A DNA stretch of 64,000 nt from Actinomycetota bacterium (GTDB lineage: Bacteria; Actinomycetota; AC-67), in assembly GCA_036397635.1 (NCBI GenBank), contig DASWIP010000031.1, forward strand, positions 6,536 to 70,535, read 5' to 3'. Under the pieces are notes generated by a model, which was given only the letters and a program-made list of their open reading frames with translations, searched no databases and had not been told where the DNA came from. The position numbers and the translations under genes are program-made. Position 1 is the first letter of the stretch; each line of letters opens with the position of its first letter. This document shows, piece after piece, positions 8,247 through 43,091 of this stretch.

Positions 8247-10241
8247 ATGAACGCGATGATCAGAAGGATGGCGCTCGCTGCGAGCATCGTGCTGGCGGCG
8301 GCGGGATCGGTCGGTGCCTCGCACGCATCGGTGACACCGGTTGCACCGCGACCGGCGACGGTCCTAGACGCCGGCCTCGTTGCGATGCTGGACGCCGCGG
8401 AGCCGGGCGAGTCCCTGATCGTCTTCGTCCATGGCGAGGGGCGGGAGGACGCGTCGCGCGCGGCGCGAGCGGTGGGCCTCGACGTGCTGGAGCGCTGGGA
8501 GAAGGTCGGCGTCGCGGTCGCCTCTGGCTCTGCGGAGGCCATCCGACGGCTCTCTGCGGATCCCTCGGTGACCTACATCGAGCCAGACCGCCCGGTCGAG
8601 ATGCTCCTGGACACCGCACACATCGCGACGCGCGCGCAGGAGGCTCGCGAGCCCGCCGCAGGGCTGCTCGAGCCAGAGGGGTTCCCCTACGACGGCACCG
8701 GGGTGACGATCGCCATCCCCGACTCGGGGATCGACGCGACGCACCCGATGTTCGTGCAGGACGGAACCTCGAAGGTGGTGCGCAACCTGCGCCATGCCTG
8801 CCTCGAATCGGCTCCGTGCAGCGCCTGGGTCGAGGCCGACGACAACGACGCTGCCGACGGGCACGGCACCGCCGTGGCAAGCGTCGCAGCGGGCTACGAG
8901 CGCGTCAGCGCCAGGGGCAGGACCGTCCGCGGGGTTGCCCCCGGGGCGAAGCTCGTAGGGCTAGGGAGCGAGGGCGTCTATCTCTATGGCCACCTCAGCG
9001 GCTTCAACTGGGTCCTTGAGAATCACGCGGATCCCTGCGGTGATGGAACGTGTCCTCCGATCCGCGTGATGAGCTACTCGGGAGGGTCGGCGGATTCGGT
9101 GACGGCCGCGCAGCTGGTAGAGGCGTTGGTGTCTGAGGGGATCACCGTGACCGTGGCGGTGGGCAACGACGGCGGCGACGGGTCACAGGACAACGTCTCT
9201 CCGCTGGTGCATACCACGACGCCCGGCGTCATCGGCGTCGCGAACTACGAAGACAACGACATCGGCAGCAGGGACTACGGTCTGGACCCCAGCAGCGGGC
9301 GAGGACTCAGGACCGATCCAAGCAGTTATCCCGACCTCGCCGCGCCGGGGACTTGGATCACCCTGGCATGCAGGGCCACGCAACGGAGGTGCCAGCCGGG
9401 CCTCGAAGCGGATCCCGATTACTCGATCCTCACCGGGACGTCCCTCTCTGCTCCGTACGTCGCAGGCGTCGTTGCCTTGCTCGTCGAGGCGAACCCTGCG
9501 CTAACGCCCGCGGACATCGAGGACCTGCTGGAGGACACCGCCTATCAGTTCGGAACGGCCGACTATGTCGCTGATCCGACCAACCCGAACCATACGACCT
9601 CGTTCGACCGGGGTCACGGCCTCGTCGATGTCACGGCGGCCCTGGCGGCCGCGCTGGAGCGACCGGCACCGTACTGGAGCTGCGGTACCGGTGACATCGT
9701 CGATCCGGAGGGCGACGCGACGGCCCTCGCCGAGGAGACGGGCTTGTCGCCGCCGTCGGCCGACGGCCTGGACATCACGCGCGCGTGGGTGAGCACCGAC
9801 CCAACAACCGGCGCGCTCACGTTCGCCGTGCGGCTGGCCGATCTCGGGGAGCTTCCCCCGGCGGCTGCTGTGGGCGAGTACCTGCGCTTCTACTTCACCT
9901 ACGCTGGCGCGCCCTACGAGGTCCACATGCAGCGGCTGGGTGGCGCCGCCGAGGCGAGCGTCCGATTCCATCTGCAAACGGCGGGGAGCGCCATCGATCG
10001 AGTGATCGTCGCCGACGACCTCGCCGGCAGCTTCGACCATGTCGCAGACGTGGTTCGGGCAGTGGTTCCCGCCAGCGCGTTCAACGATTGGAACCCCGCC
10101 GTGCCGGTCGTCGTGGACGGCGACCTCCTGACCGGACTCCAGGTCACGTCCAACCGGCCGCACGGGAACCGTCCTGCAGGGCCGGCGTTCCTGATCGCCG
10201 ACACCGCCAAGGGCGCCTGTCCCCACATCGTCGGGTCCTAA
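8247..10241 (+). CDS. Subtilisin-like serine peptidase (S8) with inhibitor-I9-like propeptide
   Basis: AGGGGGAG SD before the ATG at 8247 and a signal peptide. The catalytic triad is visible: DSGID (Asp), HGTAVASVAAG (His) and GTSLSAPYVAGVVALL (Ser). Confidence 0.9.
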   Translation: MNAMIRRMALAASIVLAAAGSVGASHASVTPVAPRPATVLDAGLVAMLDAAEPGESLIVFVHGEGREDASRAARAVGLDVLERWEKVGVAVASGSAEAIRRLSADPSVTYIEPDRPVEMLLDTAHIATRAQEAREPAAGLLEPEGFPYDGTGVTIAIPDSGIDATHPMFVQDGTSKVVRNLRHACLESAPCSAWVEADDNDAADGHGTAVASVAAGYERVSARGRTVRGVAPGAKLVGLGSEGVYLYGHLSGFNWVLENHADPCGDGTCPPIRVMSYSGGSADSVTAAQLVEALVSEGITVTVAVGNDGGDGSQDNVSPLVHTTTPGVIGVANYEDNDIGSRDYGLDPSSGRGLRTDPSSYPDLAAPGTWITLACRATQRRCQPGLEADPDYSILTGTSLSAPYVAGVVALLVEANPALTPADIEDLLEDTAYQFGTADYVADPTNPNHTTSFDRGHGLVDVTAALAAALERPAPYWSCGTGDIVDPEGDATALAEETGLSPPSADGLDITRAWVSTDPTTGALTFAVRLADLGELPPAAAVGEYLRFYFTYAGAPYEVHMQRLGGAAEASVRFHLQTAGSAIDRVIVADDLAGSFDHVADVVRAVVPASAFNDWNPAVPVVVDGDLLTGLQVTSNRPHGNRPAGPAFLIADTAKGACPHIVGS

Positions 10242-12720: not shown

Positions 12721-13992
12721 TCAGCCCGTCACGGTTCCGTAGAACAGACACTCGACTCCAACGGGGGGAGCCCCTGGTATCGCGCGCGTGCCGACCACGC
12801 CGGAGACCACATGTCCGGCATCATCGGTGTACAGGAACGTCACCTGTGTCGGTGCCAGATCCGAGTCGAATTCGTCGGTCCCCGTCAGGGTGTCTCCGAA
12901 GGTGTCGAGCTGCGCGGCGCGCTCGACCACCAGCGTGTCGGCCCCGCGCGCGTGCCAGACGATCCTTGCGCCCGGCTCGCTGGAGCGAGCGGACAGGATC
13001 GCTACTGTTGGGGTGCTGGGGTCGAAGAATCCATAGTCGCAGCGACCGGTCAGCTCGAGTCCGGACGCCACGATGAGCGATAGCTCATCCGTCCCAGTCT
13101 TGCTGATCCGGAACGTGCTGGCGCCGTCCCCCGGTGCGCCTGCGGGTCCCTGCGGGCCTGCGGGTCCCTCCGGGCCGCTGAGACCCTGCGGTCCCGCGGG
13201 TCCAGCGAGGCCCGTCTCACCTTGCGGGCCCGCCGGTCCCGGCTCGCCTTGGGGACCGACTGGACCGGGTTCGCCCTGCTGATTCCAGCTCAACAGGCGT
13301 TCGTCCTTCTTGCATGCCGAGGGTCCATCGACCACGCGAAGCGAGCCGCCTGCGTTGCCGTAACAGGCGTAGATCGTGCCGTCCTCAGCGGGGATCTGGG
13401 CGAACGCGAACGTGGCGGTCAGCACCCCGAGGACGCTGAGCGCAGCGACGATGGGGATCGATCGGGCCTTGCGGATGATGCTGGTTCCCGTGGACATGTT
13501 CTTCCTCCTATCTGGGGCTTCCGCCCCTAACGGACCGGGATCGGTCCCGGCCACGAATTTCCTGCGGATGCGGGTTGACGACGCGAGGAGCTGCTCGAAA
13601 TCGGGGCCTTGGAAGACCAACGCACGCAGCGGCGTGCGTGCGACCACGGTCGCCGTCCTCGGCCGATTGGCCAGCAGCGATAGCTCCCCGACCATGGATC
13701 CGGCTCCGACGATCGCGACCAGATCGCCGGCTACGCGGACCTCGGCTTTGCCCTCGATCAGGAGGCAGCAGCCGCGCGCACCATGCCCCTCGACCGTGAG
13801 GGGCTCGCCGGCCTCGACCGTGATCTGGGAGCTGAGCCCGGCGATGATTCGCAGCTCGGCTGCCGTGCTGTCGGCGAACAACGGCATCTCACGCAGCGCG
13901 GCCATGATGCGCCGGCGGTGAACGACCATCCGAGCCATCTCCGCTCCTTTCGGGATCTCGCGCGATGCGACCCGAGAGGATGCTCGCGGCAA
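12721..13992 (-). CDS. In-frame fusion ORF: N-terminal cyclic-nucleotide-binding (cNMP/CAP-like) domain, TM/signal segment, collagen-like GXY repeats and an unknown C-terminal domain. An internal strong-SD start at 13497 would give the collagen-like secreted protein alone (12721..13497).
   Basis: cNMP domain [16 protein letters not shown]...GELSLL...[16 protein letters not shown]. The ATG at 13497-13495 is preceded by ATAGGAGGAAGAAC. It is followed by the hydrophobic [20 protein letters not shown] and then 17 GXY triplets ([49 protein letters not shown]). No stop separates the two parts. Confidence 0.6.
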
Positions 13993-14040: not shown

Positions 14041-17000
14041 CTAGGAGCCGTCCAGCGGCTCGCCCAAGGCGACCATGATCTGAACGAGTGCTTCGCGCGC
14101 GCCGACCTCGGCGGTTCGGCGGACCGCCTCATCGAACGCCGCCTCTCCCACGGCGTCGCGCACGAGCAGACTTGCGCCGTCGAAGGCCGCTCGTTCGGAC
14201 GGCGGCAAGACGCCTTCAGCACGTTCGAGCAGCGCGCGCGCAGCCCCAAGCGCCACCGCGGCCGCCTGCGGAGTGTCAGATGCTGCCACGACGCCGAGTG
14301 CGGTCAAGGAGCGAGCGATCTCGAATGTATCCTCGGTCTGCAGCAGGATCTCTACCGAACGCACCGCATGCGCGCGCGCCTCGACCGCATCGCCGGCCGT
14401 CATCTCCAGCGCGGTCAGGGAGCGCAGCAGCGTCCCATGCAAGCCCTCGTCGATCCCGCGCGCGGCGATCTCCAGCGCCTCGGCATAGCGCGTCCGGGCC
14501 TCGTCGAGGTCGCCACAAGCGAGGGCCACATCGCCCATGCCGATCGCACTGGCGAGCCCACCGCGAACGTAGCCGGCCACTCGCGACGCTTCCCGCGCTT
14601 CTGCGAGATGCGTCGACGCGGCGCCCAGGTCGCCGGCGGCGATGCGGCACGCCGACAGGACGAGAAGCGGCTCGATCGCGCCGAAAGTATCGCCGCTCTC
14701 ACGCATCATTCGCAGGGCGCGCTCAAGCGTGACGGACGCATTCACATATCCGCCCGTCTGATACAGCGCTGCCCCGATGTTGACGACGGCATTCCCGACG
14801 TGGCGCATCGCTCCTGCCGCGTAGGCGAGCTCGAGGGACGCCTCGTACCGCTCGAGCGCCTTCGACATGTGACCGCGGCGTTGATCCACCGAGCCGAGAT
14901 TGCCGAGAAGGGTCATCCGGTAGGTCACGTCACCGAGGGCCTCTGACATCTCGAGCGCTTCCGTCCATCGAGCGTCCGCGCCGTCGGTCTCGCCCTGCCG
15001 CCAGGCGATCACACCCAGGTTCGCCAATGCCCCGACCGCCGCGACACTATCCCCGCGCGCGCGCGCTATGGCGAGGGAACGCTCGATGAGGGCGGTCGCT
15101 CCACCCAAGTCGCCCTGCTCGGCGAGCGCCGGCGCGAGATTATGGATCGCCATGTGCTCTGTCTGCTCGTCGCCGATCCGCTGGGCGATCTCGAGCGCAG
15201 CGCGGAACGTAGTGATGCTTCCGGCGTAGTCGCCTTGATTCTTCATCGCGTTCCCGAGCGTGATCAGCGTGCTCATCTCGAGGATCTCGTCGCGCTCGGC
15301 ACGAGCGATGTCGAGCGCGTCCTCCGCGTACCCTTGGGCGCGCGGAAACTCTCCTTGATCGTTGGCTGTCGAAGCGAGAGATGTGAGGACACGCCCACGC
15401 AGGGGTGCCGTGGTCGCTTGATCCAGCGCGCGCTCGAGGTACTTCCGCCTGTCGCGCACGTAGCCTCGCCGAGCGAAGTACGGTGAGATCGCGACCGCCA
15501 GTCGCGCGGCCTCGTCGGCTCGCCGGTTGCCCGCGGTCGCCCGCTCGAGCGCTGTGGTGATGTTGTCGTGCTCCTCGGCCAGCGATGCAACCGTAACGGC
15601 GTCGCCCATCCAGGCCTTCTGCGTGGTGCTCTCGGCCACGGTCAGCACCCACCCGAGGTGAGCGTCGGCGATGCGGTCTGCCTCACCGGAGGCGCGCAAC
15701 TGCTCGGCCGCGTAATCGCGGATCACGACCAGCATCTCGTACCTGCTGGCCGACGTGGTATGTCGCATCGACAGCAGGGACTTGTCCACCAGACCGCTGA
15801 GAAGATCCAGCACCTCTGCTGCGTCGATCCCATCGCCGGCGCATACGAGGGTCGCGCTGGCGGTCGTGCATCCGCCGTGGAAGACCGACAGGCGGCGGAA
15901 GAGACAACGTTCCTCCTCGTTCAGCAGGTCGAAGGACCATGCGAGGGTACCGCGCATGGTCTGATGGCGCGGATCGCCGGTGCGGCTCCCGACCGTCAAG
16001 AGGCGCAGCGTGTCGGCAAGGTTCGCAACGAGGTCGGGAAGGCCTGCCGCACGCGTCCGCGCGGCGACCAGCTCGATCGCCAGCGGCATGCCATCGAGGC
16101 GCCGGCAGATCTCGACGATCGCACCGACGTGCGCGGCGGCGTCCAGGTGTGCGTTGGCTGCGCGCGCGCGCTCCAGGAACAGCGCAGCAGCGGGATGCTC
16201 CAGCGCCTCCTCCAGAGACCGCGTGTTTGCCGGCGGCACTGGGAGTGGTGCGATGACCGTGACGGTCTCTCCCGGCACTCGCAATGATTCCCGCGAGGTC
16301 GTGAGGATCCGCATCCTTGGGCACGCGGCGAGGATGGTTGCGCAGGCTGATGCGACCTCTTCGAGAAGATGCTCGCAGTTGTCGATCAACAACAGCGCCT
16401 GCCGGCCGGCGAGTTCGTCGAGCAGCGTATCTTGCAGTGCTCGTCCGGCTTGCTCGCGCACGCCGACCGCGGAGGCGATACGGCGGATCACCAATGAGGG
16501 GTCATCGACTGCGGCGAGTTCGACGAGCCATACGCCGTCGGGATATCGGGCGACCATCCGGTGCGCGATCTCGATGGCCAGGCGCGTCTTGCCCGAGCCA
16601 CCGGGTCCCGTGAGGGTCACCAGCCGCGCCTGGTCGAGCAGGTCGCCGACCTCTGTCTGCTCGGCCTCGCGCCCGAGGAAGCGATTCGCCGGGAAGGGCA
16701 GGTTGTGCGGGGCCGCCGTGTCGAGGATCCCGCCCACGTCGAGCGTCGCGGACTGTTTCAGGATCGCTTCGAACAGGGATGAAACCTCGGCTGAAGGGTC
16801 GATGCCGAGCGATTCGGCAAGGTGCTCTCGCAGTTCCTGAAACGCCTCGAGCGCGTCGGACTGTCGTCCCGCTCGGTACAGCGCGAGCATGCGTCTCGCC
16901 CACACTGTTTCGCGTGTCGGGAACCTGGCGCATTCGACGGCAAGCTCTTCGGCCACCCTCCGATGAGCACCCAGCGCGAGATCCACATCCGCCTTCTCTT

Positions 17001-17571
17001 CGACCGCGATCAGCCGCTGCTCGTTGAGACGAGCCGCGCCCGAGCGTGCGAAGGTGAGATCGATGCCGGTGAACGCATCCCCTCGCCACAAGCCCAGTGC
17101 CTCGGCGTACAGCGCGCTCGCATGACGGTGCGCGCCACGCGTCTCCCCTGCGCGCGCCTCGGCCAGGAGGGCGACGAATCGGCCGCTATCCACCTCGTTG
17201 CGCATGTCGACATCCAAGCGGTAGCCGCGCGGGACCGTCTCGACAACTCGTCGCCCACACATCTCTTCGAACGTCCGACGCAGCTTCGACACGTGCACGC
17301 GCAGGGCCGTTCCGGCGGTATCCGGTGGCGAGCCGTCCCACAGGTCCTCGATCAGCGCATCCACGGGGATCGGCCGCCCTTCGGCGAGCAACAGTCGCGC
17401 AAGCAACGCCTGCTCCTTCGTCGCCGAGATGGGAAGAGTCTTGCCGTCGTGGGTGACGGTCAGGGGGCCCAATATTTCGAAGAACACGCACAGAGGGTAC
17501 CGTCGGTGACGCCACGCGTGAACGCCGCCCACTCTCTGGTGCCGGGGGCCTCGATCAGCCAGGCTACCCAT
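14041..17571 (-). CDS. AfsR/SARP-family transcriptional regulator (OmpR-type winged helix + BTAD + NB-ARC ATPase + TPR repeats)
   Basis: FEILGPLTV SARP start motif, Walker A GPGGSGKTRLA, and a C-terminal ~500 aa TPR-like region. The true start may be the in-frame GTG near 17480 rather than 17571. Confidence 0.85.
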   Translation of the reverse strand: MGSLADRGPRHQRVGGVHAWRHRRYPLCVFFEILGPLTVTHDGKTLPISATKEQALLARLLLAEGRPIPVDALIEDLWDGSPPDTAGTALRVHVSKLRRTFEEMCGRRVVETVPRGYRLDVDMRNEVDSGRFVALLAEARAGETRGAHRHASALYAEALGLWRGDAFTGIDLTFARSGAARLNEQRLIAVEEKADVDLALGAHRRVAEELAVECARFPTRETVWARRMLALYRAGRQSDALEAFQELREHLAESLGIDPSAEVSSLFEAILKQSATLDVGGILDTAAPHNLPFPANRFLGREAEQTEVGDLLDQARLVTLTGPGGSGKTRLAIEIAHRMVARYPDGVWLVELAAVDDPSLVIRRIASAVGVREQAGRALQDTLLDELAGRQALLLIDNCEHLLEEVASACATILAACPRMRILTTSRESLRVPGETVTVIAPLPVPPANTRSLEEALEHPAAALFLERARAANAHLDAAAHVGAIVEICRRLDGMPLAIELVAARTRAAGLPDLVANLADTLRLLTVGSRTGDPRHQTMRGTLAWSFDLLNEEERCLFRRLSVFHGGCTTASATLVCAGDGIDAAEVLDLLSGLVDKSLLSMRHTTSASRYEMLVVIRDYAAEQLRASGEADRIADAHLGWVLTVAESTTQKAWMGDAVTVASLAEEHDNITTALERATAGNRRADEAARLAVAISPYFARRGYVRDRRKYLERALDQATTAPLRGRVLTSLASTANDQGEFPRAQGYAEDALDIARAERDEILEMSTLITLGNAMKNQGDYAGSITTFRAALEIAQRIGDEQTEHMAIHNLAPALAEQGDLGGATALIERSLAIARARGDSVAAVGALANLGVIAWRQGETDGADARWTEALEMSEALGDVTYRMTLLGNLGSVDQRRGHMSKALERYEASLELAYAAGAMRHVGNAVVNIGAALYQTGGYVNASVTLERALRMMRESGDTFGAIEPLLVLSACRIAAGDLGAASTHLAEAREASRVAGYVRGGLASAIGMGDVALACGDLDEARTRYAEALEIAARGIDEGLHGTLLRSLTALEMTAGDAVEARAHAVRSVEILLQTEDTFEIARSLTALGVVAASDTPQAAAVALGAARALLERAEGVLPPSERAAFDGASLLVRDAVGEAAFDEAVRRTAEVGAREALVQIMVALGEPLDGS

Positions 17572-17678: not shown

Positions 17679-18500
17679 TCAGGGCCTGGATGCCTTGACG
17701 ATCACCGCGGTCGCGACGTGGCTCTGTCGTTCCTGTGGGATCGTCCGGCGCATCGCCTCGATGACCTCGGCGGTGAAGAGCGGGTACATCGACGCCTCAG
17801 CGACGCCGAAGGGGCGATGGCCCCCTACCCACACGTTCGTGAACCCCGCTCGCTCGAGTTTGTCGGCGAAGACACGCTCCGCCAGGGCGCCCGACACTCA
17901 GCCGGCCCAAGCGCTGGGATCGGCTGCGACCTCGATGGGGAGCTCTGTATCGAGCGTGAGGTCCCCCAAGCAGATGCGGCCGCCGGGGCGCAGGACACGG
18001 TGGATCTCAGCCATCGCGCGGCTCTTGCGCGCCGAGAGGTTCAGCACACCGTTCGAGATCACCACATCGACCGACGCGTCGGGCAGCGGGATGTCTTCCA
18101 TCTCGCCCTGAACGAACCGGGTCCAACCGGCGACGCCCGCCGCGGTCGCGTGCGTGCCCGCTCGCTCGCACATCTCCTCAAGGATGTCCAGACCGATCGC
18201 GCTGCCGGTTGACCCGACGCGCCTGGCAGCGAGGATCGTGTCGATGCCCCCGCCGGATCCCACGTCGAGCACTGTCTCGCCGGGCTGGAGGAACGCGTAG
18301 CGGATCGGGTTGGCAACCCCGAGGGCCCAGCGCACCGCGTGGGCAGGGAGCTCAGCGAGCTCGGCGTCGCTGTAGAGCTTGCGCGCGACCGCCTCGCCAC
18401 CGCCGGACTCGATCGAGCGGTACGACTGCGCGACGTTGTCTTTGATCTCCTGTTGGAACATCAGGTCGCGGGCCATGACTCTCCTGTCGTCAAAGCTCAT
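17679..18500 (-). pseudogene. ArsM/UbiE-like class I SAM methyltransferase interrupted by a single in-frame TGA (17898-17900) at the position of a conserved Cys. Either a pseudogene or a recoded (Sec/readthrough) gene.
   Basis: SAM motif [11 protein letters not shown], then ...DPSAWAG-TGA-VSGALAERVFADKLERAGF...HVATAVIVKASRP (an ArsM-like C-terminus) in the same frame. Track ORFs 17898..18500 and 17679..17897 are one frame split by the TGA. Confidence 0.6.
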
Positions 18501-18726
18501 CCAGGAAGCGCTCCAAGTGGTCGCGGACGTGCTGCGGGATCACGTCGGACGTGCCGGTCGCTAGGAAGGACCGAACCTCCCTGGCGAACTCCAATTCTCC
18601 ACAGCAGGTCCGGCAGAACGCGAGGTGCTTCTCGACGCTCTCTTGCTCCTCGGGGGAGATCGCGTTGTCCAGGTACTCCCAGAGCCGCTTCACTGCCTCG
18701 GAGCATGGGATCAGCTGCTCGGTCAT
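18490..18726 (-). CDS. rsrA: Zinc-associated anti-sigma factor (ZAS, RsrA-like)
   Basis: HLAFCRTCC (HxxxCxxC) motif and ~78 aa length. Overlaps the downstream methyltransferase start by 11 nt and the upstream sigma gene stop. Confidence 0.8.
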   Translation of the reverse strand: MTEQLIPCSEAVKRLWEYLDNAISPEEQESVEKHLAFCRTCCGELEFAREVRSFLATGTSDVIPQHVRDHLERFLDEL

Positions 18727-19313
18727 GGTGTTTCCTCTCTAGCGAGGAGCCCCGCGTCGCCTGCGTAGCTCCACATCTCGATCTCGAAGCGCTTGCGCGC
18801 GCGATGCAGGCGCGCGAGCACGGTTCCCAGAGGGACGTCGAGCATCTGGGCGATCTCTTTGGTCGACCATCCCTCCATGTAGTGCAGGACGAGCGGTGCT
18901 CGGTAGATGTCCTGGATCCGCATGAGCACCGCGTGGACATCCTCTTTCCCGAAGGCGCTGAGGAAGTCGTGGTGGAGCGTGTCGGAATAGGGGAAGGGAT
19001 CCTCGATCGCGATGGTTCGGTAGAGCGAGAAGTCGTCGATCTCTTCGACGCTGACCTCTTCCACCGCGCGCGATCGCTTCCGCAGTGTGTCGTGGAACAC
19101 GTTCACCAGGATCCGCTTGAGCCATGGTCCAACCGAGGCGTCGGTCTTCAGGGTCCCGAACGACCGGTAGGCCCGCAGCAGCGTCTCCTGCACCAGATCC
19201 TCCGCGCTCACCTCATCCAGCCGCCGCGCCAGTGAGTACAGGCCCGCCAGCTCGGGAAGCGTCAGCAACCGGAACGCCTCCTTCGTGCGGTCCTGCACCA
19301 CCTGTTCGTTCAT
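18723..19313 (-). CDS. ECF RNA polymerase sigma factor (SigR/SigE-like)
   Basis: Sigma-70 region 2 (LVQETLLRAYRSF) and region 4 (WSTKEIAQMLDVPLGTVLARLHRARKRF). ATG at 19313 chosen; the track ORF begins at a GTG at 19337. Confidence 0.85.
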   Translation of the reverse strand: MNEQVVQDRTKEAFRLLTLPELAGLYSLARRLDEVSAEDLVQETLLRAYRSFGTLKTDASVGPWLKRILVNVFHDTLRKRSRAVEEVSVEEIDDFSLYRTIAIEDPFPYSDTLHHDFLSAFGKEDVHAVLMRIQDIYRAPLVLHYMEGWSTKEIAQMLDVPLGTVLARLHRARKRFEIEMWSYAGDAGLLAREETP

Positions 19314-19378
19314 CGCGCGCGGCTTCGAACCTTCCACGAGGAGTCCTCACAGGGTTAGACGACGCCGAGGGCGATCCT

Positions 19379-19401
19379 ATTGCACGCCGGCACGATGCAA
19401 T
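19379..19401. promoter_or_regulatory. Palindrome ATTGCA-N11-TGCAAT in the divergent sigma / membrane-protein intergenic region (candidate operator)
   Basis: Inverted repeat read directly from the sequence. Confidence 0.3.
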
Positions 19402-19447
19402 ACAACTGTCGCGCCGACCGTCTTGTCATGGGCAGGAGGTGAGATCT

Positions 19448-19948
19448 ATGGCAAGCATCACACTGGAGGGCGATCGGTCGGCGACCGCCGACTCAATGCT
19501 CCGATCCGGCTCGTGGCTGATGGGTGTCGCGGCGGTGGGGTTCATCGGGTACTCGGTCATCTTCCTCATCAGGAACTTCACGGACAGCTTCCTCGAGCTG
19601 GGGATCGGCCCGAGCGAGGTCAACGTGGGCAAAGAGGCGATCCAGGCGTTCAGCCCGTCGCTGTACCACTACATCGGCCATCTCCACATCGCCGTTTCGG
19701 GCTTCATCGCTGCAACCGGTGTCGCGGTGCTGTTCCTGGTCGCGTACGGCGTGCGTCGCGGCCACCTGTGGGCGTGGATCGGCGCCGTCGCGGCACCCGT
19801 GCTGGGGCTCGCGGTTGCGCTGCCCGCGCACTATCCCAACAGCTTCGATACCGTCGGGCACCTGGGACTCATCTACTTGGCGGTCGTCATCTTCGTCGGG
19901 GGCGCCCTCGTAGCGCTCCGAGGCCTCGTCGACCATCGCCGCACGTAA
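19448..19948 (+). CDS. Integral membrane hypothetical protein (4 TM)
   Basis: AGGAGGTGA SD 5 nt before the ATG and four hydrophobic helices. The 5' part of track ORF 19124..19948 has no support. Confidence 0.6.
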   Translation: MASITLEGDRSATADSMLRSGSWLMGVAAVGFIGYSVIFLIRNFTDSFLELGIGPSEVNVGKEAIQAFSPSLYHYIGHLHIAVSGFIAATGVAVLFLVAYGVRRGHLWAWIGAVAAPVLGLAVALPAHYPNSFDTVGHLGLIYLAVVIFVGGALVALRGLVDHRRT

Positions 19949-39057: not shown

Positions 39058-41052
39058 GTGGACATCGTCGTGCTCGGACTCGTCATCGGGATGGCCAACG
39101 CGCTGCTCGCGGTGGGTCTGGTGCTCATCCACAAGGCTAACCGCGTGATCAACCTGGCCCACGGTGAACTGGGCGCCTTCACGGTCGCGATGATGCTGTC
39201 GCTGACCCGCGTCGCGCACCTCAACTACTGGCTGGCGCTGCTCTGCAGCCTCGCCGGAACGGTTTTGCTGACCGCGATGATCGAGCGCACGGTTCTTCGC
39301 CGGCTGTTCCGCAGCCCGCGATTGATCATGCTCATCGCCACGATCGGCGTCGCCCAACTGGTCATCGTGCTGCGGCTCGTGCTGCCGAAGCCGAGGACGG
39401 CGCTTGGTGATTCGATCCTCGCCGGCGGCGGATCGCAGTTCCCGGTGCCCTTCCAGATGGACCCGATCCCCTTCGGCCGGATCGTGCTCGGGCCGGCGCA
39501 CTTCATGGCGCTGGTCGCCGGACCCCTGCTCGCGATCGGGCTCCTGCTGTTCCTGAAGCGGTCCTCCTATGGGATCGCGCTTCGCGCTGCCGCCGAGAAC
39601 GCGCCGCGCGCGCAGCTGCTCGGTATCCCGGTCCGCCGGGTGTCGACCCTGGCCTGGGTACTGGCAGGCCTGCTCTCCGGCGTCGCAGCGGTGCTGCTCG
39701 CGCCGATCATCGGCTTCTCGGCGACCGAGGCGGTGGGGTTGCCGCTGCTGATGCGCGGCTTGGCCGCCGCGACCGTCGCGCGCATGGAGTCCGTCGGGAT
39801 CGCGTTCGTGGGCGGCCTCGCGCTCGGTGTCGCGGATCAGGTCGTGTTCTTCACCACGGGGCGGAGCGACCTGACGGATCTGGTTCTGTTCATCGTGATC
39901 CTGCTCGCGCTGCTGCCCAGGCGCGCGCTTCAGCGTCGCACGGTCGCGGCGGAGGAGTCGTCGTGGGACGTCGCCGACCCGGTACGGCCGTTGCCGATCG
40001 AGCTCGCCTCGCATCCGCGGTGGCGCGCGCTCAGCCGTACGGCGCTTGCCCTCGGCGTGCTTGCGATCGGCGCCGGGCCGTTCCTGCTGCAGCCGTCGGC
40101 GACGTTCTTCCTCTCGACCGTGTTCCTGGTCGGCGCGGTCGCCGTGTCGATGACGGTGCTGACCGGCTGGGCCGGGCAGATGTCGATCGGGCAATGGGCC
40201 CTGGCCGGTGCCGGCGGCGTGATCGGATCCAAGCTCGTCGGCACGATGGGATGGCCCTTCTGGCCGTCGCTCCTCGTCGCGGCGCTGCTTGGCATGGTGC
40301 TCGCCGTCGCGATCGGGTTGCCGGCGCTGCGGCTCGAGGGCACATCGCTCGCGGTCGTCACCCTCGGGTTCGCGGTCGTTTCTGCATCCTGGCTGTTCCA
40401 ACAAGATTGGTTCGGCGGCGACGGATTCATGCCCAAGCCCGACTATCTCTCGACGCGGTGGTACTACGCCGTCGCGATCGTGTTCCTGGCGCTGACGATG
40501 CTCGCCGCGCGCGCGCTGCAGCGAAGCAGGTTCGGGCGGAACACGGTCGCGGTTCGCGACAACCCGCGGCAGGCAGCATCGTTCGGCGTGGCGATCGTGC
40601 GCACCAAGCTCACGGCGTTCGCGGTATCGGGTGCGATCGCGGCGGCGGCCGGGTTCCTGTGGGCCGCGGGGATCGGGATCGCCGACGCGTCGGTCTTCCC
40701 GCCGGTCCGGTCGCTCTCCATCGTCGCCGCGGTCGTCATCGGCGGGCTCGGCTCGGTCCCCGGGGCGGTGCTCGGCGCGTTCTATCTGCAGGCGATCCCG
40801 TACTTCGGCGCGTCGATCTCGCCGTACATCGGGTTGCTCACGACCGGGTTCGGTCTGTTGATCCTCCTGATCTTCTTCCCCGGGGGGCTCGCCCGGCTGG
40901 TTCAGACGGGACGCGATCTGCTCGCTCGTGCCGTCACCGGGATCGATCCGCGACCACAGGGTCGCGTGGCCGATGAGGATGCGCTCAGCGCTGCCAGCGA
41001 AGGGCTGGTCCCCGATGGCGTCGCGCCCGAGCCGGTGGGGACGAGGGTGTGA
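39058..41052 (+). CDS. ABC transporter permease, fused LivH-like + LivM-like domains
   Basis: About 20 hydrophobic helices. The N-terminal half is LivH-like and the C-terminal half LivM-like. Confidence 0.85.
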   Translation: MDIVVLGLVIGMANALLAVGLVLIHKANRVINLAHGELGAFTVAMMLSLTRVAHLNYWLALLCSLAGTVLLTAMIERTVLRRLFRSPRLIMLIATIGVAQLVIVLRLVLPKPRTALGDSILAGGGSQFPVPFQMDPIPFGRIVLGPAHFMALVAGPLLAIGLLLFLKRSSYGIALRAAAENAPRAQLLGIPVRRVSTLAWVLAGLLSGVAAVLLAPIIGFSATEAVGLPLLMRGLAAATVARMESVGIAFVGGLALGVADQVVFFTTGRSDLTDLVLFIVILLALLPRRALQRRTVAAEESSWDVADPVRPLPIELASHPRWRALSRTALALGVLAIGAGPFLLQPSATFFLSTVFLVGAVAVSMTVLTGWAGQMSIGQWALAGAGGVIGSKLVGTMGWPFWPSLLVAALLGMVLAVAIGLPALRLEGTSLAVVTLGFAVVSASWLFQQDWFGGDGFMPKPDYLSTRWYYAVAIVFLALTMLAARALQRSRFGRNTVAVRDNPRQAASFGVAIVRTKLTAFAVSGAIAAAAGFLWAAGIGIADASVFPPVRSLSIVAAVVIGGLGSVPGAVLGAFYLQAIPYFGASISPYIGLLTTGFGLLILLIFFPGGLARLVQTGRDLLARAVTGIDPRPQGRVADEDALSAASEGLVPDGVAPEPVGTRV

Positions 41053-43091
41053 GCTTGCGGCCCCCGCTCTCGCCGCGGACGTGGATCCCGCGGCTGCGCG
41101 CGTATCTCAACGGCGAGGCGCTGTTCCCGATCCTGGTGCTGTTCGCGCTCAACGCGGTCGACGAGTTCGATAGCCGGACCTTCGATGTGCTGGGGCCCGA
41201 GATCGCCGAGGACTTCGGCGTCGGGGTCGGCGCCTTCGGATCGATCGCGGTGCTGGTGCTGCTGCTCGTGCCCCTGGTCGCGGTGCCGGTCTCGTACCTG
41301 GCCGACCGGTGGCGCCGGATGCCGCTGGCGATCGGCGGTGCGGCGGCGTGGGGCGCCTTCTCGCTGGCGACGGGCCTCGCGCCGATCCTGCCGCTGCTGA
41401 TCCTGTCCCGGGTGGGGTCGGGCTTCGGGAAGGTCGTCAACCAGCCGGTGCACGGGGCGCTCATCTCGGAGTTCTACTCGCCGCGCACGCGCGCGAAAGC
41501 GTTCGGGATCCACTCGCTGGCCAACATCGGCGGCGCGGCGGTCGCGGCCGTGCTCGGCGGCGTCATCGCGCAGGTGTTCGGCTGGCGGACCGCGTTCTTC
41601 GTGCTGACGATCCCGACGGTCGCGGCGATCCTGATCGCGTTGCGGCTGCGCGAGCCGCCCCGCGGCCGCTTCGAGGTCACCGAAACGCCGGCCGCGCCCC
41701 CGTTGCGCCAGACGATCCGCCGGCTGTGGGCCATCCGCTCGCTGCGTTACCAGTGGATCGGACTCGCCTACACGACCGGATCGACGCTGGGCATCGGCGT
41801 GCTCGTGCCGTTCTTCCTGGAGGAGGACTTCGGGGTTGAGCCGGGCTTGCGGGGCGTGCTGATCGGCGTCGGGACGGCGATCTCGGCTGTCGCCGTGCTC
41901 ATCGGCACGGCGGTCGCGCAGAATCGGATCAACGAGCGGCCCAGCGAAGGACTGCGGCTGCTGTGCTTCAGCGGCATCGCTGCCGGCGTGGCGCTGTTCG
42001 GGATGGCGGTCGCACCGTCGCTGGCGCTCATCGTGCTGTTCCTGTGGATCATCATGGCCATCTTCGCGTTCGTCGCACCAGGCCTGCTGTCGATCACGGC
42101 GATCGTGTCGCCCCCGGAGATCCGATCGTCGGCGTTCGCGCTCGGCGGGTTCATCGCCCTCGCGGGCTCGGGGTTCTCGCTGATCGGCTTCGCGATCGGC
42201 GACCAGGTGAGCATGCGGCTTGCGATCGGCATCATGGCCCCGGTGTTCCTGCGCGGTGTCGGCTACTTCTTCAAGGCCGCCGGGTATCTCGACGATGACG
42301 TCGAGAGACTCGATCCCGCGCATGCGCAGAAGGCGGGCGGCGAGAGCGGCCCTGTGCTGCTCGAGACCAAGGGGCTCATGGTGTCCTTCGACGGCGTCCG
42401 CGTCCTGTTCGGCGTGAACCTCGAGATCCGGCGAGGCGAGGTCGTCGCGCTGCTCGGCACGAACGGTGCCGGGAAGTCCACCACGCTGAACGCGATCAGC
42501 GGCATCGTCGAGCCGGAGGCCGGCAACGTGTGGTTCGAGGGTGAGGCGATCGTCGGCGAGTCGCCCGAGCAGACGGTCAAGAGGGGCATCGTGCAGGTGC
42601 CGGGCGGGCGCGGCGTCTTCCCCGGGCTGACGGTCGAGGAGAACCTGCGCATGGGCGCGTTCCTCATCCGGCGCGACCGCGCGCTGGTTCAGCGGCGCCT
42701 GGACGAGGTGTTCGGTCTGTTCCCCAGACTCGCGGAGCGGCGCGGGCAGCGCGCCGGGTCGCTGTCCGGCGGCGAGCGCCAGATGCTGACGCTCGCCCAG
42801 TCGTTCCTGCTGCGGCCGACGCTGCTGCTGATCGACGAGCTTTCCCTCGGCCTCGCCCCGACCGTGGTCGAGGAGCTGCTCGGCGCCGTGCGCACGATGA
42901 ACCAGGAGGGGACGACGATCGTCATCGTGGAGCAGTCGGTTAACATCGCGCTCAACCTGGCCGACCGCGCCTACTTCATGGAGAAGGGCGAGGTTCGGTT
43001 CTCGGGGCCGACCGCCGAGCTGCTGCAGCGGCAGGACCTGCTGCGCTCGGTCTTCCTCGAGGGAGCAGGCAGGTCGGTCGCGCGCACGTGA
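41049..43091 (+). CDS. Fusion protein: N-terminal MFS-transporter-like domain (~430 aa, ~12 TM) + C-terminal LivF-like ABC ATPase
   Basis: MFS motif A LADRWRRMP. C-terminal Walker A GTNGAGKST, signature LSGGERQ, Walker B LLLIDELSLG. The start overlaps the permease stop. Confidence 0.8.
   Translation: MSLRPPLSPRTWIPRLRAYLNGEALFPILVLFALNAVDEFDSRTFDVLGPEIAEDFGVGVGAFGSIAVLVLLLVPLVAVPVSYLADRWRRMPLAIGGAAAWGAFSLATGLAPILPLLILSRVGSGFGKVVNQPVHGALISEFYSPRTRAKAFGIHSLANIGGAAVAAVLGGVIAQVFGWRTAFFVLTIPTVAAILIALRLREPPRGRFEVTETPAAPPLRQTIRRLWAIRSLRYQWIGLAYTTGSTLGIGVLVPFFLEEDFGVEPGLRGVLIGVGTAISAVAVLIGTAVAQNRINERPSEGLRLLCFSGIAAGVALFGMAVAPSLALIVLFLWIIMAIFAFVAPGLLSITAIVSPPEIRSSAFALGGFIALAGSGFSLIGFAIGDQVSMRLAIGIMAPVFLRGVGYFFKAAGYLDDDVERLDPAHAQKAGGESGPVLLETKGLMVSFDGVRVLFGVNLEIRRGEVVALLGTNGAGKSTTLNAISGIVEPEAGNVWFEGEAIVGESPEQTVKRGIVQVPGGRGVFPGLTVEENLRMGAFLIRRDRALVQRRLDEVFGLFPRLAERRGQRAGSLSGGERQMLTLAQSFLLRPTLLLIDELSLGLAPTVVEELLGAVRTMNQEGTTIVIVEQSVNIALNLADRAYFMEKGEVRFSGPTAELLQRQDLLRSVFLEGAGRSVART

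Follow-up and report, generated by a model that had tools for sequence, protein, structure and literature searches.

A probable selenocysteine-containing ArsM-fold methyltransferase encoded beside an ECF sigma/anti-sigma pair in Actinomycetota

Introduction

How should a single in-frame TGA codon be read when it falls exactly where a conserved cysteine is expected? The question is raised by a methyltransferase gene in a 64,000-nucleotide (64-kb) stretch of an Actinomycetota genome (assembly GCA_036397635.1, contig DASWIP010000031.1, positions 6,536 to 70,535 of the forward strand), which as a whole is referred to here as the window. The gene resembles those of arsenite methyltransferases (ArsM), and its TGA could be a mutation, an error in the sequence, a boundary between two polypeptides, or a codon for selenocysteine (Sec, U). 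The original prediction, made from the letters of the window, leaned towards selenocysteine, and comparison of orthologous loci supports that leaning: the gene is very probably an intact, unannotated selenoprotein gene. Selenoproteins of this general kind, ArsM-type with the motif UxxG, have been known since 2007, and nothing is overturned. What is new is a single-domain clade in Actinomycetota that lacks the other ArsM cysteines, is tied to an extracytoplasmic function (ECF) sigma factor and a zinc-binding (ZAS) anti-sigma factor, and has an extremely conserved selenocysteine insertion sequence (SECIS).

An in-frame TGA in the methyltransferase gene

The gene lies on the minus strand (17679..18476) and has 265 codons including the proposed Sec codon, its product running from MARDLMFQ to KASRP. 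The frame reads ...DPSAWAG-TGA-VSGALAERVFADKLERAGF..., with the TGA at 17898-17900 (minus strand), and then continues for 72 codons to ...HVATAVIVKASRP. The description of one TGA followed by 72 undisrupted codons, with which the original prediction began, is thus confirmed; the final stop is a TGA at 17679-17681, and the frame has no disruption besides that at 17898-17900. The interrupting TGA is taken as the codon for Sec at residue 193, in the motif U-V-S-G, and the codons past it (17679..17897, minus strand), which open with VSGALAERVF..., encode the C-terminal portion of this one globular enzyme. The NCBI product (P0001) comprises only the first 192 aa, and gene callers give the remaining 72 aa as a separate open reading frame (ORF). 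In a scan of the entire window this TGA alone had coding-like GC content at third codon positions on both sides, and no other TGA-interrupted coding region was found in the 64 kb. The scan also flagged TGAs in orthologous loci, but these resemble normal stop codons that separate neighbouring genes in one frame and were rejected.

Both Pfam and NCBIfam place the product among the class I S-adenosylmethionine (SAM)-dependent methyltransferases. The start codon at ATG 18476 is favoured by the N-termini of homologues (M-[AT]-x-DLM...) and by an AGGAG box, and with this start a 13-nt gap separates the gene from the anti-sigma stop codon (18490-18492). An 11-nt overlap between the two genes, as initially proposed, needs a start at ATG 18500 and is disfavoured.

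Conservation of the TGA among orthologues

Orthologue DNA was obtained by exact protein look-up (loci L001 and L002), from species-representative genomes (L003-L012) and from loci L186-L191. A protein search showed that close relatives of the window protein (79-86% identity) are all 192 aa long and end at the same place, and that farther relatives (<=68% identity) are full length. Every close relative that was fetched has the TGA followed by 72-80 conserved codons. Fourteen orthologues identified through protein similarity have the TGA at exactly this codon; it is present in the orthologues of 11 species-level metagenome-assembled genomes (MAGs) and in L001 and L002 (69-88% amino acid identity), and likewise in L186, L189 and L190. 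Cysteine occupies the aligned column in all 109 full-length database homologues, and its codon is TGC in all four of the Cys-form genes that were read at the DNA level. The orthologue alignment proposed at the outset as a check gave TGA, and not a sense codon, in the closer orthologues and Cys in the more distant homologues; with the tRNA-Sec described below, the refuting outcome set down with the prediction did not arise. A neighbour-joining tree of 78 Sec and 109 Cys forms, rooted with canonical ArsM, shows that a single change between U and C explains the distribution.

As a falsification test, a metagenome collection was scanned with the bare 18-mer of the hairpin described below. The scan returned 120 stretches, 91 of them in a methyltransferase context and 29 in unrelated genes that encode LAERVF. 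A TGA lies exactly 13 nt upstream of the 18-mer in every one of the methyltransferase contexts (91/91, with 78 distinct flanks), and TGC or TGT in none (0/91).

The codons beyond the TGA also evolve as coding sequence. Among the 11 orthologues of 69-88% amino acid identity the ratio of nonsynonymous to synonymous substitution (dN/dS) has a value of 0.16 before the TGA and 0.22 after it, and synonymous divergence is about 0.5-0.57 on both sides; the low downstream ratio at similar synonymous divergence indicates that the tail is translated and under purifying selection. The codon that follows the TGA is GTG (giving TGAGTG) in the window (at 17894-17897), in 11/11 of this first set of orthologues and in 60 of the 91 metagenome loci, and is GTA, ATA, CTG, CTC, CTA, ATC or ATT in the other 31 and in L186; the Cys forms have GTC or ATC after the Cys codon. 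The preference for GTG may reflect a context effect on UGA decoding versus termination.

We note one metagenomic sequence of 1,093 bp (L111, JGI25407J50210_10047386) that has the exact hairpin and encodes VSGAMAERVF, with GTG at the TGA position. On neither side does the adjoining frame match the methyltransferase, and the sequence is possibly a degenerate copy or a chimeric assembly.

A SECIS-like hairpin downstream of the TGA

A hairpin, U-GGCGGAG [CGUGU] CUUCGCC-G, occupies 17864..17884 on the minus strand and starts 13 nt after the UGA. A stem-loop had been drawn here in the original prediction; the structure is real, and its form is better given as an 8-bp stem closing the 5-nt loop CGUGU (17872-17876). 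Most of the hairpin is taken up by an 18-mer, TGGCGGAGCGTGTCTTCG (17867-17884, minus strand; nucleotides +14 to +31 past the TGA), which in the codon alignment of the 11 orthologues is the longest invariant run in the gene, the next longest being 6 nt. Only 12.8% of codons in this alignment have an invariant third base, and yet the hairpin has seven consecutive codons with frozen third positions (permutation p < 5e-5), among them the Arg201 codon, which is the rare CGT in every sequence. The proportion of synonymous differences (pS) is 0.022 inside the hairpin codons against about 0.55 elsewhere. The RNAalifold consensus supports the 8-bp stem with loop CGUGU, and the two substitutions seen in the stem (U-G to U-A and G-C to G-U) are single-sided and both keep the pairing. 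Folded on its own, the hairpin has a free energy of -10.7 kcal/mol (z = -2.5). Cys-form genes lack the hairpin and vary synonymously in this region.

The published model of the bacterial SECIS (bSECIS) has a loop of 3-9 nt with G in the first two loop positions, a stem of 4-16 bp, 16-37 nt between the UGA and the apical loop, and a minimum free energy (MFE) of at most -7.5 kcal/mol (PMC13188914 Fig. 2A). The hairpin falls within all of these limits, with a loop of 5 nt in which G and then U are at positions 2-3, a stem of 8 bp, a UGA-to-loop distance of 21 nt and the stability given above, so that the comparison with bacterial SECIS models suggested at the outset came out in favour of selenocysteine. 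As in the fdhF-type SECIS of Escherichia coli and the bSECISearch consensus, the hairpin lies in the coding region after the UGA and has G-U in a small apical loop, with spacing, stem length and stability within the model. It differs from the fdhF type in that its sequence is unrelated and has no bulged U, and in that 18 nt are invariant across proteins down to 39% identity, in a set that was itself found via the hairpin. Rfam, searched over the entire window at gathering thresholds and near the TGA at E <= 10, returned no SECIS or other relevant family, and none of the curated bacterial SECIS models covers this element.

Selenocysteine decoding

A connection to selenocysteine decoding comes from L156 (Ga0184632_10004494), a metagenome contig that encodes an orthologue 74.6% identical to the window protein. 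The same contig has a full-length tRNA-Sec some 4.7 kb away from the orthologue; ARAGORN reports it as tRNA-SeC with anticodon TCA, and it scores 74.8 bits with Rfam RF01852 (gathering score 47; E 1.5e-14). The presence of this tRNA indicates that at least the L156 lineage decodes Sec. ARAGORN found no tRNA-Sec in the window, in L001-L012 or in L186-L191, a Pfam survey of 30 ORFs of the window found no sel genes, and tblastn with the E. coli SelA, SelB and SelD proteins against the window and 1.4 Mb of loci gave no match in any Sec-form locus, the sole match being in an unrelated Gallionella contig. Genome-wide reassignment of TGA was considered as well and is ruled out, TGA being the usual stop of most neighbouring genes.

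A 101-nt 'tRNA-Ala(cgc)' was called by ARAGORN at 8284-8384 (plus strand) of the window. Rfam at gathering thresholds reports no tRNA in the window, and the call is probably a false positive in GC-rich DNA.

Relationship to arsenite methyltransferases

The closest family is the NCBIfam arsenite methyltransferase model NF008823 (PRK11873), which the window protein matches with 211.6 bits, under the curated cut-off of 263, and ArsM structures in the PDB are matched at E 3e-25. The PDB alignments place the TGA (U193) on the As(III)-ligand Cys224 of CmArsM (4fr0/4kw7), in agreement with the earlier claim that a ligand cysteine is expected there. When the four cysteines of CmArsM (C44, C72, C174 and C224) are looked for, only the C224 site is kept, as Sec. 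The Cys72 site (position 54) is Val in the window protein (LGVANP) and in 186 of 187 family members, the Cys174 site (position 143) is Gly in the window protein (SNGVLNL) and in 187/187, and the N-terminal CC motif of ArsM is missing in the family; the earlier description of a non-canonical ArsM whose other cysteines are replaced was correct. No ars genes (arsR, arsB/acr3 or arsC) were found in the neighbourhood of the methyltransferase loci that were read.

An AlphaFold2 model was made of a Cys-form homologue (P0002), with a mean per-residue confidence (pLDDT) of 91.3 and a global confidence (pTM) of 0.90. Its best PDB matches are the ArsM structures 6cx6, 4fr0 and 5evj, with template modelling scores (TM) of 0.71-0.72 over about 250 of 268 residues. 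The part of the model that follows the Cys/Sec site forms two strands and several helices with pLDDT 90-98, and because this segment is ordered a 192-aa truncation would not be a complete enzyme.

Sec and Cys forms differ in their accessory cysteines. C103 is retained in 102/109 Cys forms and C169 in 107/109; the figures for the Sec forms are 40/78 and 47/78, and 14 of the 78 have no Cys whatever. These counts, which ignore kinship, suggest that Sec may render the helper cysteines dispensable. With the other three ArsM cysteines absent throughout the subfamily and many Sec forms free of Cys, the selenol would be the sole soft nucleophile or ligand in the active site, which argues both against an intramolecular selenosulfide cycle and, for the many members concerned, against a pair of protein ligands that chelate As(III). 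The window methyltransferase itself has both accessory cysteines, C103 (in EMC) and C169 (in GRIC).

Organization and regulation of the operon

The methyltransferase gene is preceded by genes for a soluble 78-aa zinc-binding (ZAS) anti-sigma factor (18490..18726, minus strand; Pfam zf-HC2, E 7.7e-11) and an ECF sigma factor (18723..19337, minus strand, starting at GTG 19337 or ATG 19313; Sigma70_r2 and r4_2), and the sigma/anti-sigma pair that had been recognized upstream is therefore confirmed by its domains. The stop codon of the sigma gene overlaps the start of the anti-sigma gene (ATGA). In the anti-sigma factor C8 and H34-x3-C38-x2-C41-C42 are invariant in 14 orthologues, and there is no membrane segment. 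The RsrA model TIGR03988 matches it with 49.5 bits, below the cut-off of 62.5, and TIGR02947 matches the sigma factor with 96.5 bits, below the cut-off of 251.55, so that orthology to SigR/SigH and to RsrA is not indicated.

The arrangement is strongly conserved. The sigma and anti-sigma genes are directly upstream of the methyltransferase gene in 16/16 loci examined, which include Cys forms (Allosalinactinospora, Actinosynnema and a Jiangellaceae MAG) and a cupin-fused form, and upstream in 50 of the 51 metagenome loci with enough room; the sigma factor is 57-72% identical across all orthologous loci. A literature search for an ECF group with a conserved methyltransferase neighbour yielded no useful match.

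An ECF-type promoter-like motif, TGCAAT-N17-CGTC, at 19358..19384 (minus strand) is directed toward the sigma/anti-sigma/methyltransferase operon, and its mirror image at 19396..19422 (plus strand) toward the divergently oriented gene (19448..19948, plus strand) of a multi-pass membrane protein of 166 aa. These two are the only matches in the window, where 0.33 are expected, and the arrangement recurs at the same place in orthologous loci of both Sec and Cys forms. Neither Pfam nor NCBIfam assigns the membrane protein to a family. Its divergent placement recurs in L001, L002, L003 and L007-L010, with 75-78% identity, and in L011, with 48%; the gene is downstream in L061 and is present in 28 of the 48 metagenome loci with enough room. 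The divergent gene probably belongs to the same regulon.

In L011 (CAWJAP010000011.1), a contig assigned to an Acidobacteriota MAG and binned as Vicinamibacterales, the end of the sequence is taken up by the genes for the membrane protein, the sigma and anti-sigma factors and the Sec methyltransferase, in a cluster of actinobacterial type. This would mean either wrong binning of the contig or transfer of the module from one phylum to another.

Alternative explanations

Several points weigh against reading the gene as a selenoprotein gene with the function considered below. Neither selA, selB, selD nor tRNA-Sec is encoded within the 64 kb of the window or in the sequences that flank the other Sec-form genes, the tRNA-Sec of L156 excepted, and the link to that tRNA is one 5.8-kb metagenome contig whose orthologue is about 75% identical. 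The stem of the hairpin is invariant and there is accordingly no compensatory covariation, its support being the conservation of synonymous sites. A single-sequence MFE fold of the 55 nt after the UGA chose another structure, which was no better than shuffles (z = +1.15); in DNA of 69% GC this fold was rejected as uninformative and the alignment was relied on instead. The metagenome set was ascertained by the hairpin itself, and its 100% hairpin identity exists by construction. Finally, the substrate proposal draws on the missing cysteines and the gene neighbours.

Whether the TGA at 17898-17900 is put down to a recent nonsense mutation that left a pseudogene or to an error of sequencing or assembly, only one base change from TGC or TGT is needed, and the NCBI annotation does stop at 192 aa. 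The same TGA nevertheless recurs in more than 100 assemblies that are independent of one another and come from different samples and species; their identities of 69-88% exclude a shared contaminating template, and the 72 downstream codons show purifying selection, no frame breaks and a hairpin kept at synonymous sites; the probability left to this explanation is negligible. The TGAGTG that is invariant in the window and the 11 first-set orthologues, together with the separate call of a 72-aa ORF, might instead point to a split enzyme, in which translation stops at the UGA and restarts at the adjacent GUG, and pieces of 192 and 72 aa assemble without the active-site residue. The codons other than GTG in 31/91 metagenome loci and in L186 speak against a restart, the split would remove exactly the residue that is Cys in 109/109 homologues, and it leaves the invariant hairpin and the linked tRNA-Sec unexplained; we regard it as very improbable. 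SelB-independent readthrough, in which a near-cognate tRNA (Trp, Cys or Arg) decodes the UGA and the hairpin merely stimulates, deserves slightly more attention, since the sequence does not distinguish which amino acid is inserted and the available DNA of this genome has no Sec machinery. Cases of such programmed readthrough are rare among bacteria, and the pairing of Cys with UGA at a catalytic site, the bSECIS-like geometry, the tRNA-Sec of L156 and the precedent of the UxxG ArsM selenoproteins favour Sec, so that readthrough by another tRNA is improbable.

The remaining alternative concerns function, namely that the protein is a plain Sec-using arsenite methyltransferase that detoxifies arsenic as canonical ArsM does. 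PRK11873 is the best NCBIfam match, ArsM and AS3MT are the best structural matches, many homologues are labelled 'arsenite methyltransferase' by JGI, and As(III), being thiol-reactive, could plausibly trigger a ZAS anti-sigma factor. In characterised ArsM, Cys174 and Cys224 jointly bind As(III) and methylarsenite (MAs(III)). The sub-threshold PRK11873 score, the nearly universal Val and Gly at the C72 and C174 sites, the missing CC motif and the lack of arsR, arsB/acr3 and arsC nearby make a plain ArsM unlikely, although less so than any of the three explanations above.

A proposed mechanism

The selenoprotein reading can be set out in five steps. The gene is a single one of 265 codons for an ArsM-fold SAM-dependent methyltransferase, with UGA as codon 193. 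The 21-nt hairpin 13 nt past the UGA would act as a bacterial SECIS: SelB carrying Sec-tRNA(Sec) would bind it and Sec would be inserted in place of termination, while in the absence of selenium the 192-aa truncated product would result. By alignment, Sec193 stands at the site of Cys224 in CmArsM and Cys206 in human AS3MT. These three steps taken jointly can be held with high confidence.

The enzyme is presumably not a canonical arsenite methyltransferase. Most likely a thiol-reactive metalloid or chalcogen substrate would be held by the single selenol of Sec193 and methylated with SAM, candidates being methylarsenite or a thiol-arsenic adduct, a selenide or tellurite species, and a sulfide or persulfide; any specific one of these substrates is at best a doubtful choice. 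The methyltransferase would be the effector of a three-gene ECF sigma/ZAS anti-sigma/methyltransferase operon, as synteny and the shared motif suggest. A thiol-reactive or oxidative signal may inactivate the zinc-thiolate anti-sigma factor, by oxidation or alkylation, and free the sigma factor, which would then drive the back-to-back TGCAAT-N17-CGTC promoters of its own operon and of the divergent membrane-protein gene. An autoregulated stress module of this sort is the simplest reading of the locus and a reasonably likely one.

A more tentative idea, against which the balance presently lies, is that these proteins constitute a distinct family of stress-sigma-controlled 'single-selenol' methyltransferases in aerobic soil Actinomycetota, with Sec as the only redox-active or soft-ligand residue. 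If so, their chemistry would differ from arsenite methylation by a Cys pair, and the enzyme would be induced through a dedicated zinc-thiolate sensor. One option would be SAM-dependent methylation of an Se-X adduct (perselenide, persulfide, a tellurium species or MAs(III)), and the other a Se-methyl-selenocysteine relay.

Comparison with known systems and significance

An ArsM-type selenoprotein with the motif UxxG and one Sec (NF008823) is among the supported prokaryotic selenoproteins; WP_011987699.1 is an example, and the type is credited to Fomenko et al. 2007 Science 315:387 (PMC13188914, PMC9312934). Forms with several Sec residues in fused proteins were added in 2025, namely ArsM/AhpD (NF041537), ArsM/DUF2284 (NF041536) and methyltransferase/UXPK-star (NF047649) (Haft & Tolstoy 2025, cited in PMC13188914). 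The window protein shares with the UxxG ArsM selenoproteins the ArsM-fold SAM methyltransferase, the Sec at the Cys of C-x-x-G (CmArsM Cys224, AS3MT Cys206; here U-V-S-G) and the existence of Cys homologues that form a Cys/Sec pair. It differs in that its clade falls below the NF008823 cut-off, occurs in soil Actinomycetota MAGs and is encoded in an ECF sigma/anti-sigma operon; the clade also lacks equivalents of Cys44, Cys72 and Cys174, a trait read from the window clade alone. With the multi-Sec fusions it has in common a homologous methyltransferase domain and the UxxG Sec site, but it is a single-domain protein with one Sec, without AhpD, DUF2284 or a C-terminal UXPK, and scores 139 bits with NF041536, 167 with NF041537 and 159 with NF047649, against cut-offs of 575, 510 and 460. 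Relative to CmArsM, CrArsM and human AS3MT (4fr0, 6cx6, 5evj, 8xt7), the fold, the SAM-binding motifs and the Cys224-equivalent position are kept, whereas three of the four cysteines, including the second As(III) ligand, are gone, and the protein is shorter (265 aa) and has no ArsM C-terminal domain.

The regulatory pair invites comparison with SigR-RsrA and SigH-RshA, which likewise have a small soluble anti-sigma factor with C...H-x3-C-x2-C zinc ligands, translational coupling to the ECF sigma gene and, as predicted here, a cognate ECF-type promoter upstream of their own operon. The window sigma and anti-sigma factors differ in scoring below the curated cut-offs and in having their own effector enzyme within the operon, and the window promoter motif, TGCAAT-N17-CGTC, is distinct from the SigR-type promoter GGAAT-N18-GTT. 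A functional analogy for a methyltransferase under a stress sigma factor is provided by MddM1, MddM2 and MddH, class I SAM-dependent S-methyltransferases of H2S and methanethiol from Actinomycetota that are induced by oxidative stress and act in chalcogenide detoxification (PMC12904073, PMC11445057). MddM1 and MddM2 are not the family of the window methyltransferase, as they are UbiG/UbiE-type proteins of 204-210 aa without Sec, and the homology shown is that of the shared fold only.

The practical consequences lie partly in annotation. NCBI and metagenome pipelines split the protein into 192 aa and a 72-aa ORF in more than 100 soil-actinobacterial contigs, and no NCBIfam selenoprotein model captures the clade. 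The 18-nt invariant SECIS and its 13-nt spacing provide a precise, searchable signature of the family and may help to define SelB specificity in the lineage. In Actinomycetota the main known user of Sec is formate dehydrogenase, and here a selenoenzyme appears behind a predicted thiol/zinc-sensing sigma switch. The Sec and Cys forms, with their differing accessory cysteines, amount to a natural experiment on the benefit of Sec to an enzyme.

Other features of the window and related loci

In the Cys-form loci there is a second ArsM-like paralogue (L060 2601-3377, L061 6886-7650, L062 4235-5014 and L063 7425-8210), which scores 179-231 bits with PRK11873, lacks the C72 and C174 sites and has a C-x7-C pair in the active-site loop. 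Genes for DsrE-like, cupin and MOSC proteins are often near it, and the Sec-form loci for which neighbourhood gene calls were inspected showed no such paralogue. In the Jiangellaceae MAG another back-to-back TGCAAT-N17-CGTC pair is located before a DsrE-like gene (L062 2093-2158), which hints that the sigma regulon may reach beyond the operon.

Immediately downstream of the methyltransferase gene the window encodes a 1,176-aa SARP-type regulator (14041-17571, minus strand) with Trans_reg_C, BTAD, NB-ARC/AAA and TPR domains, which is not conserved beside the module in those orthologous loci for which gene calls were inspected. Among the various other genes, we note an ORF at 12721-13992 (minus strand) with an unusual pairing of a cyclic-nucleotide-binding domain and collagen-like triple-helix repeats, and a 680-aa ORF at 41049-43091 (plus strand) with MFS_1 and ABC_tran domains, which could be a genuine fusion or the result of two genes being joined in the mechanical ORF call. 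Beside the Allosalinactinospora Cys form (L060 228-2446) a molybdopterin oxidoreductase is encoded as two genes 66 nt apart, with products of 536 aa and of 180 aa, the latter containing Molydop_binding.

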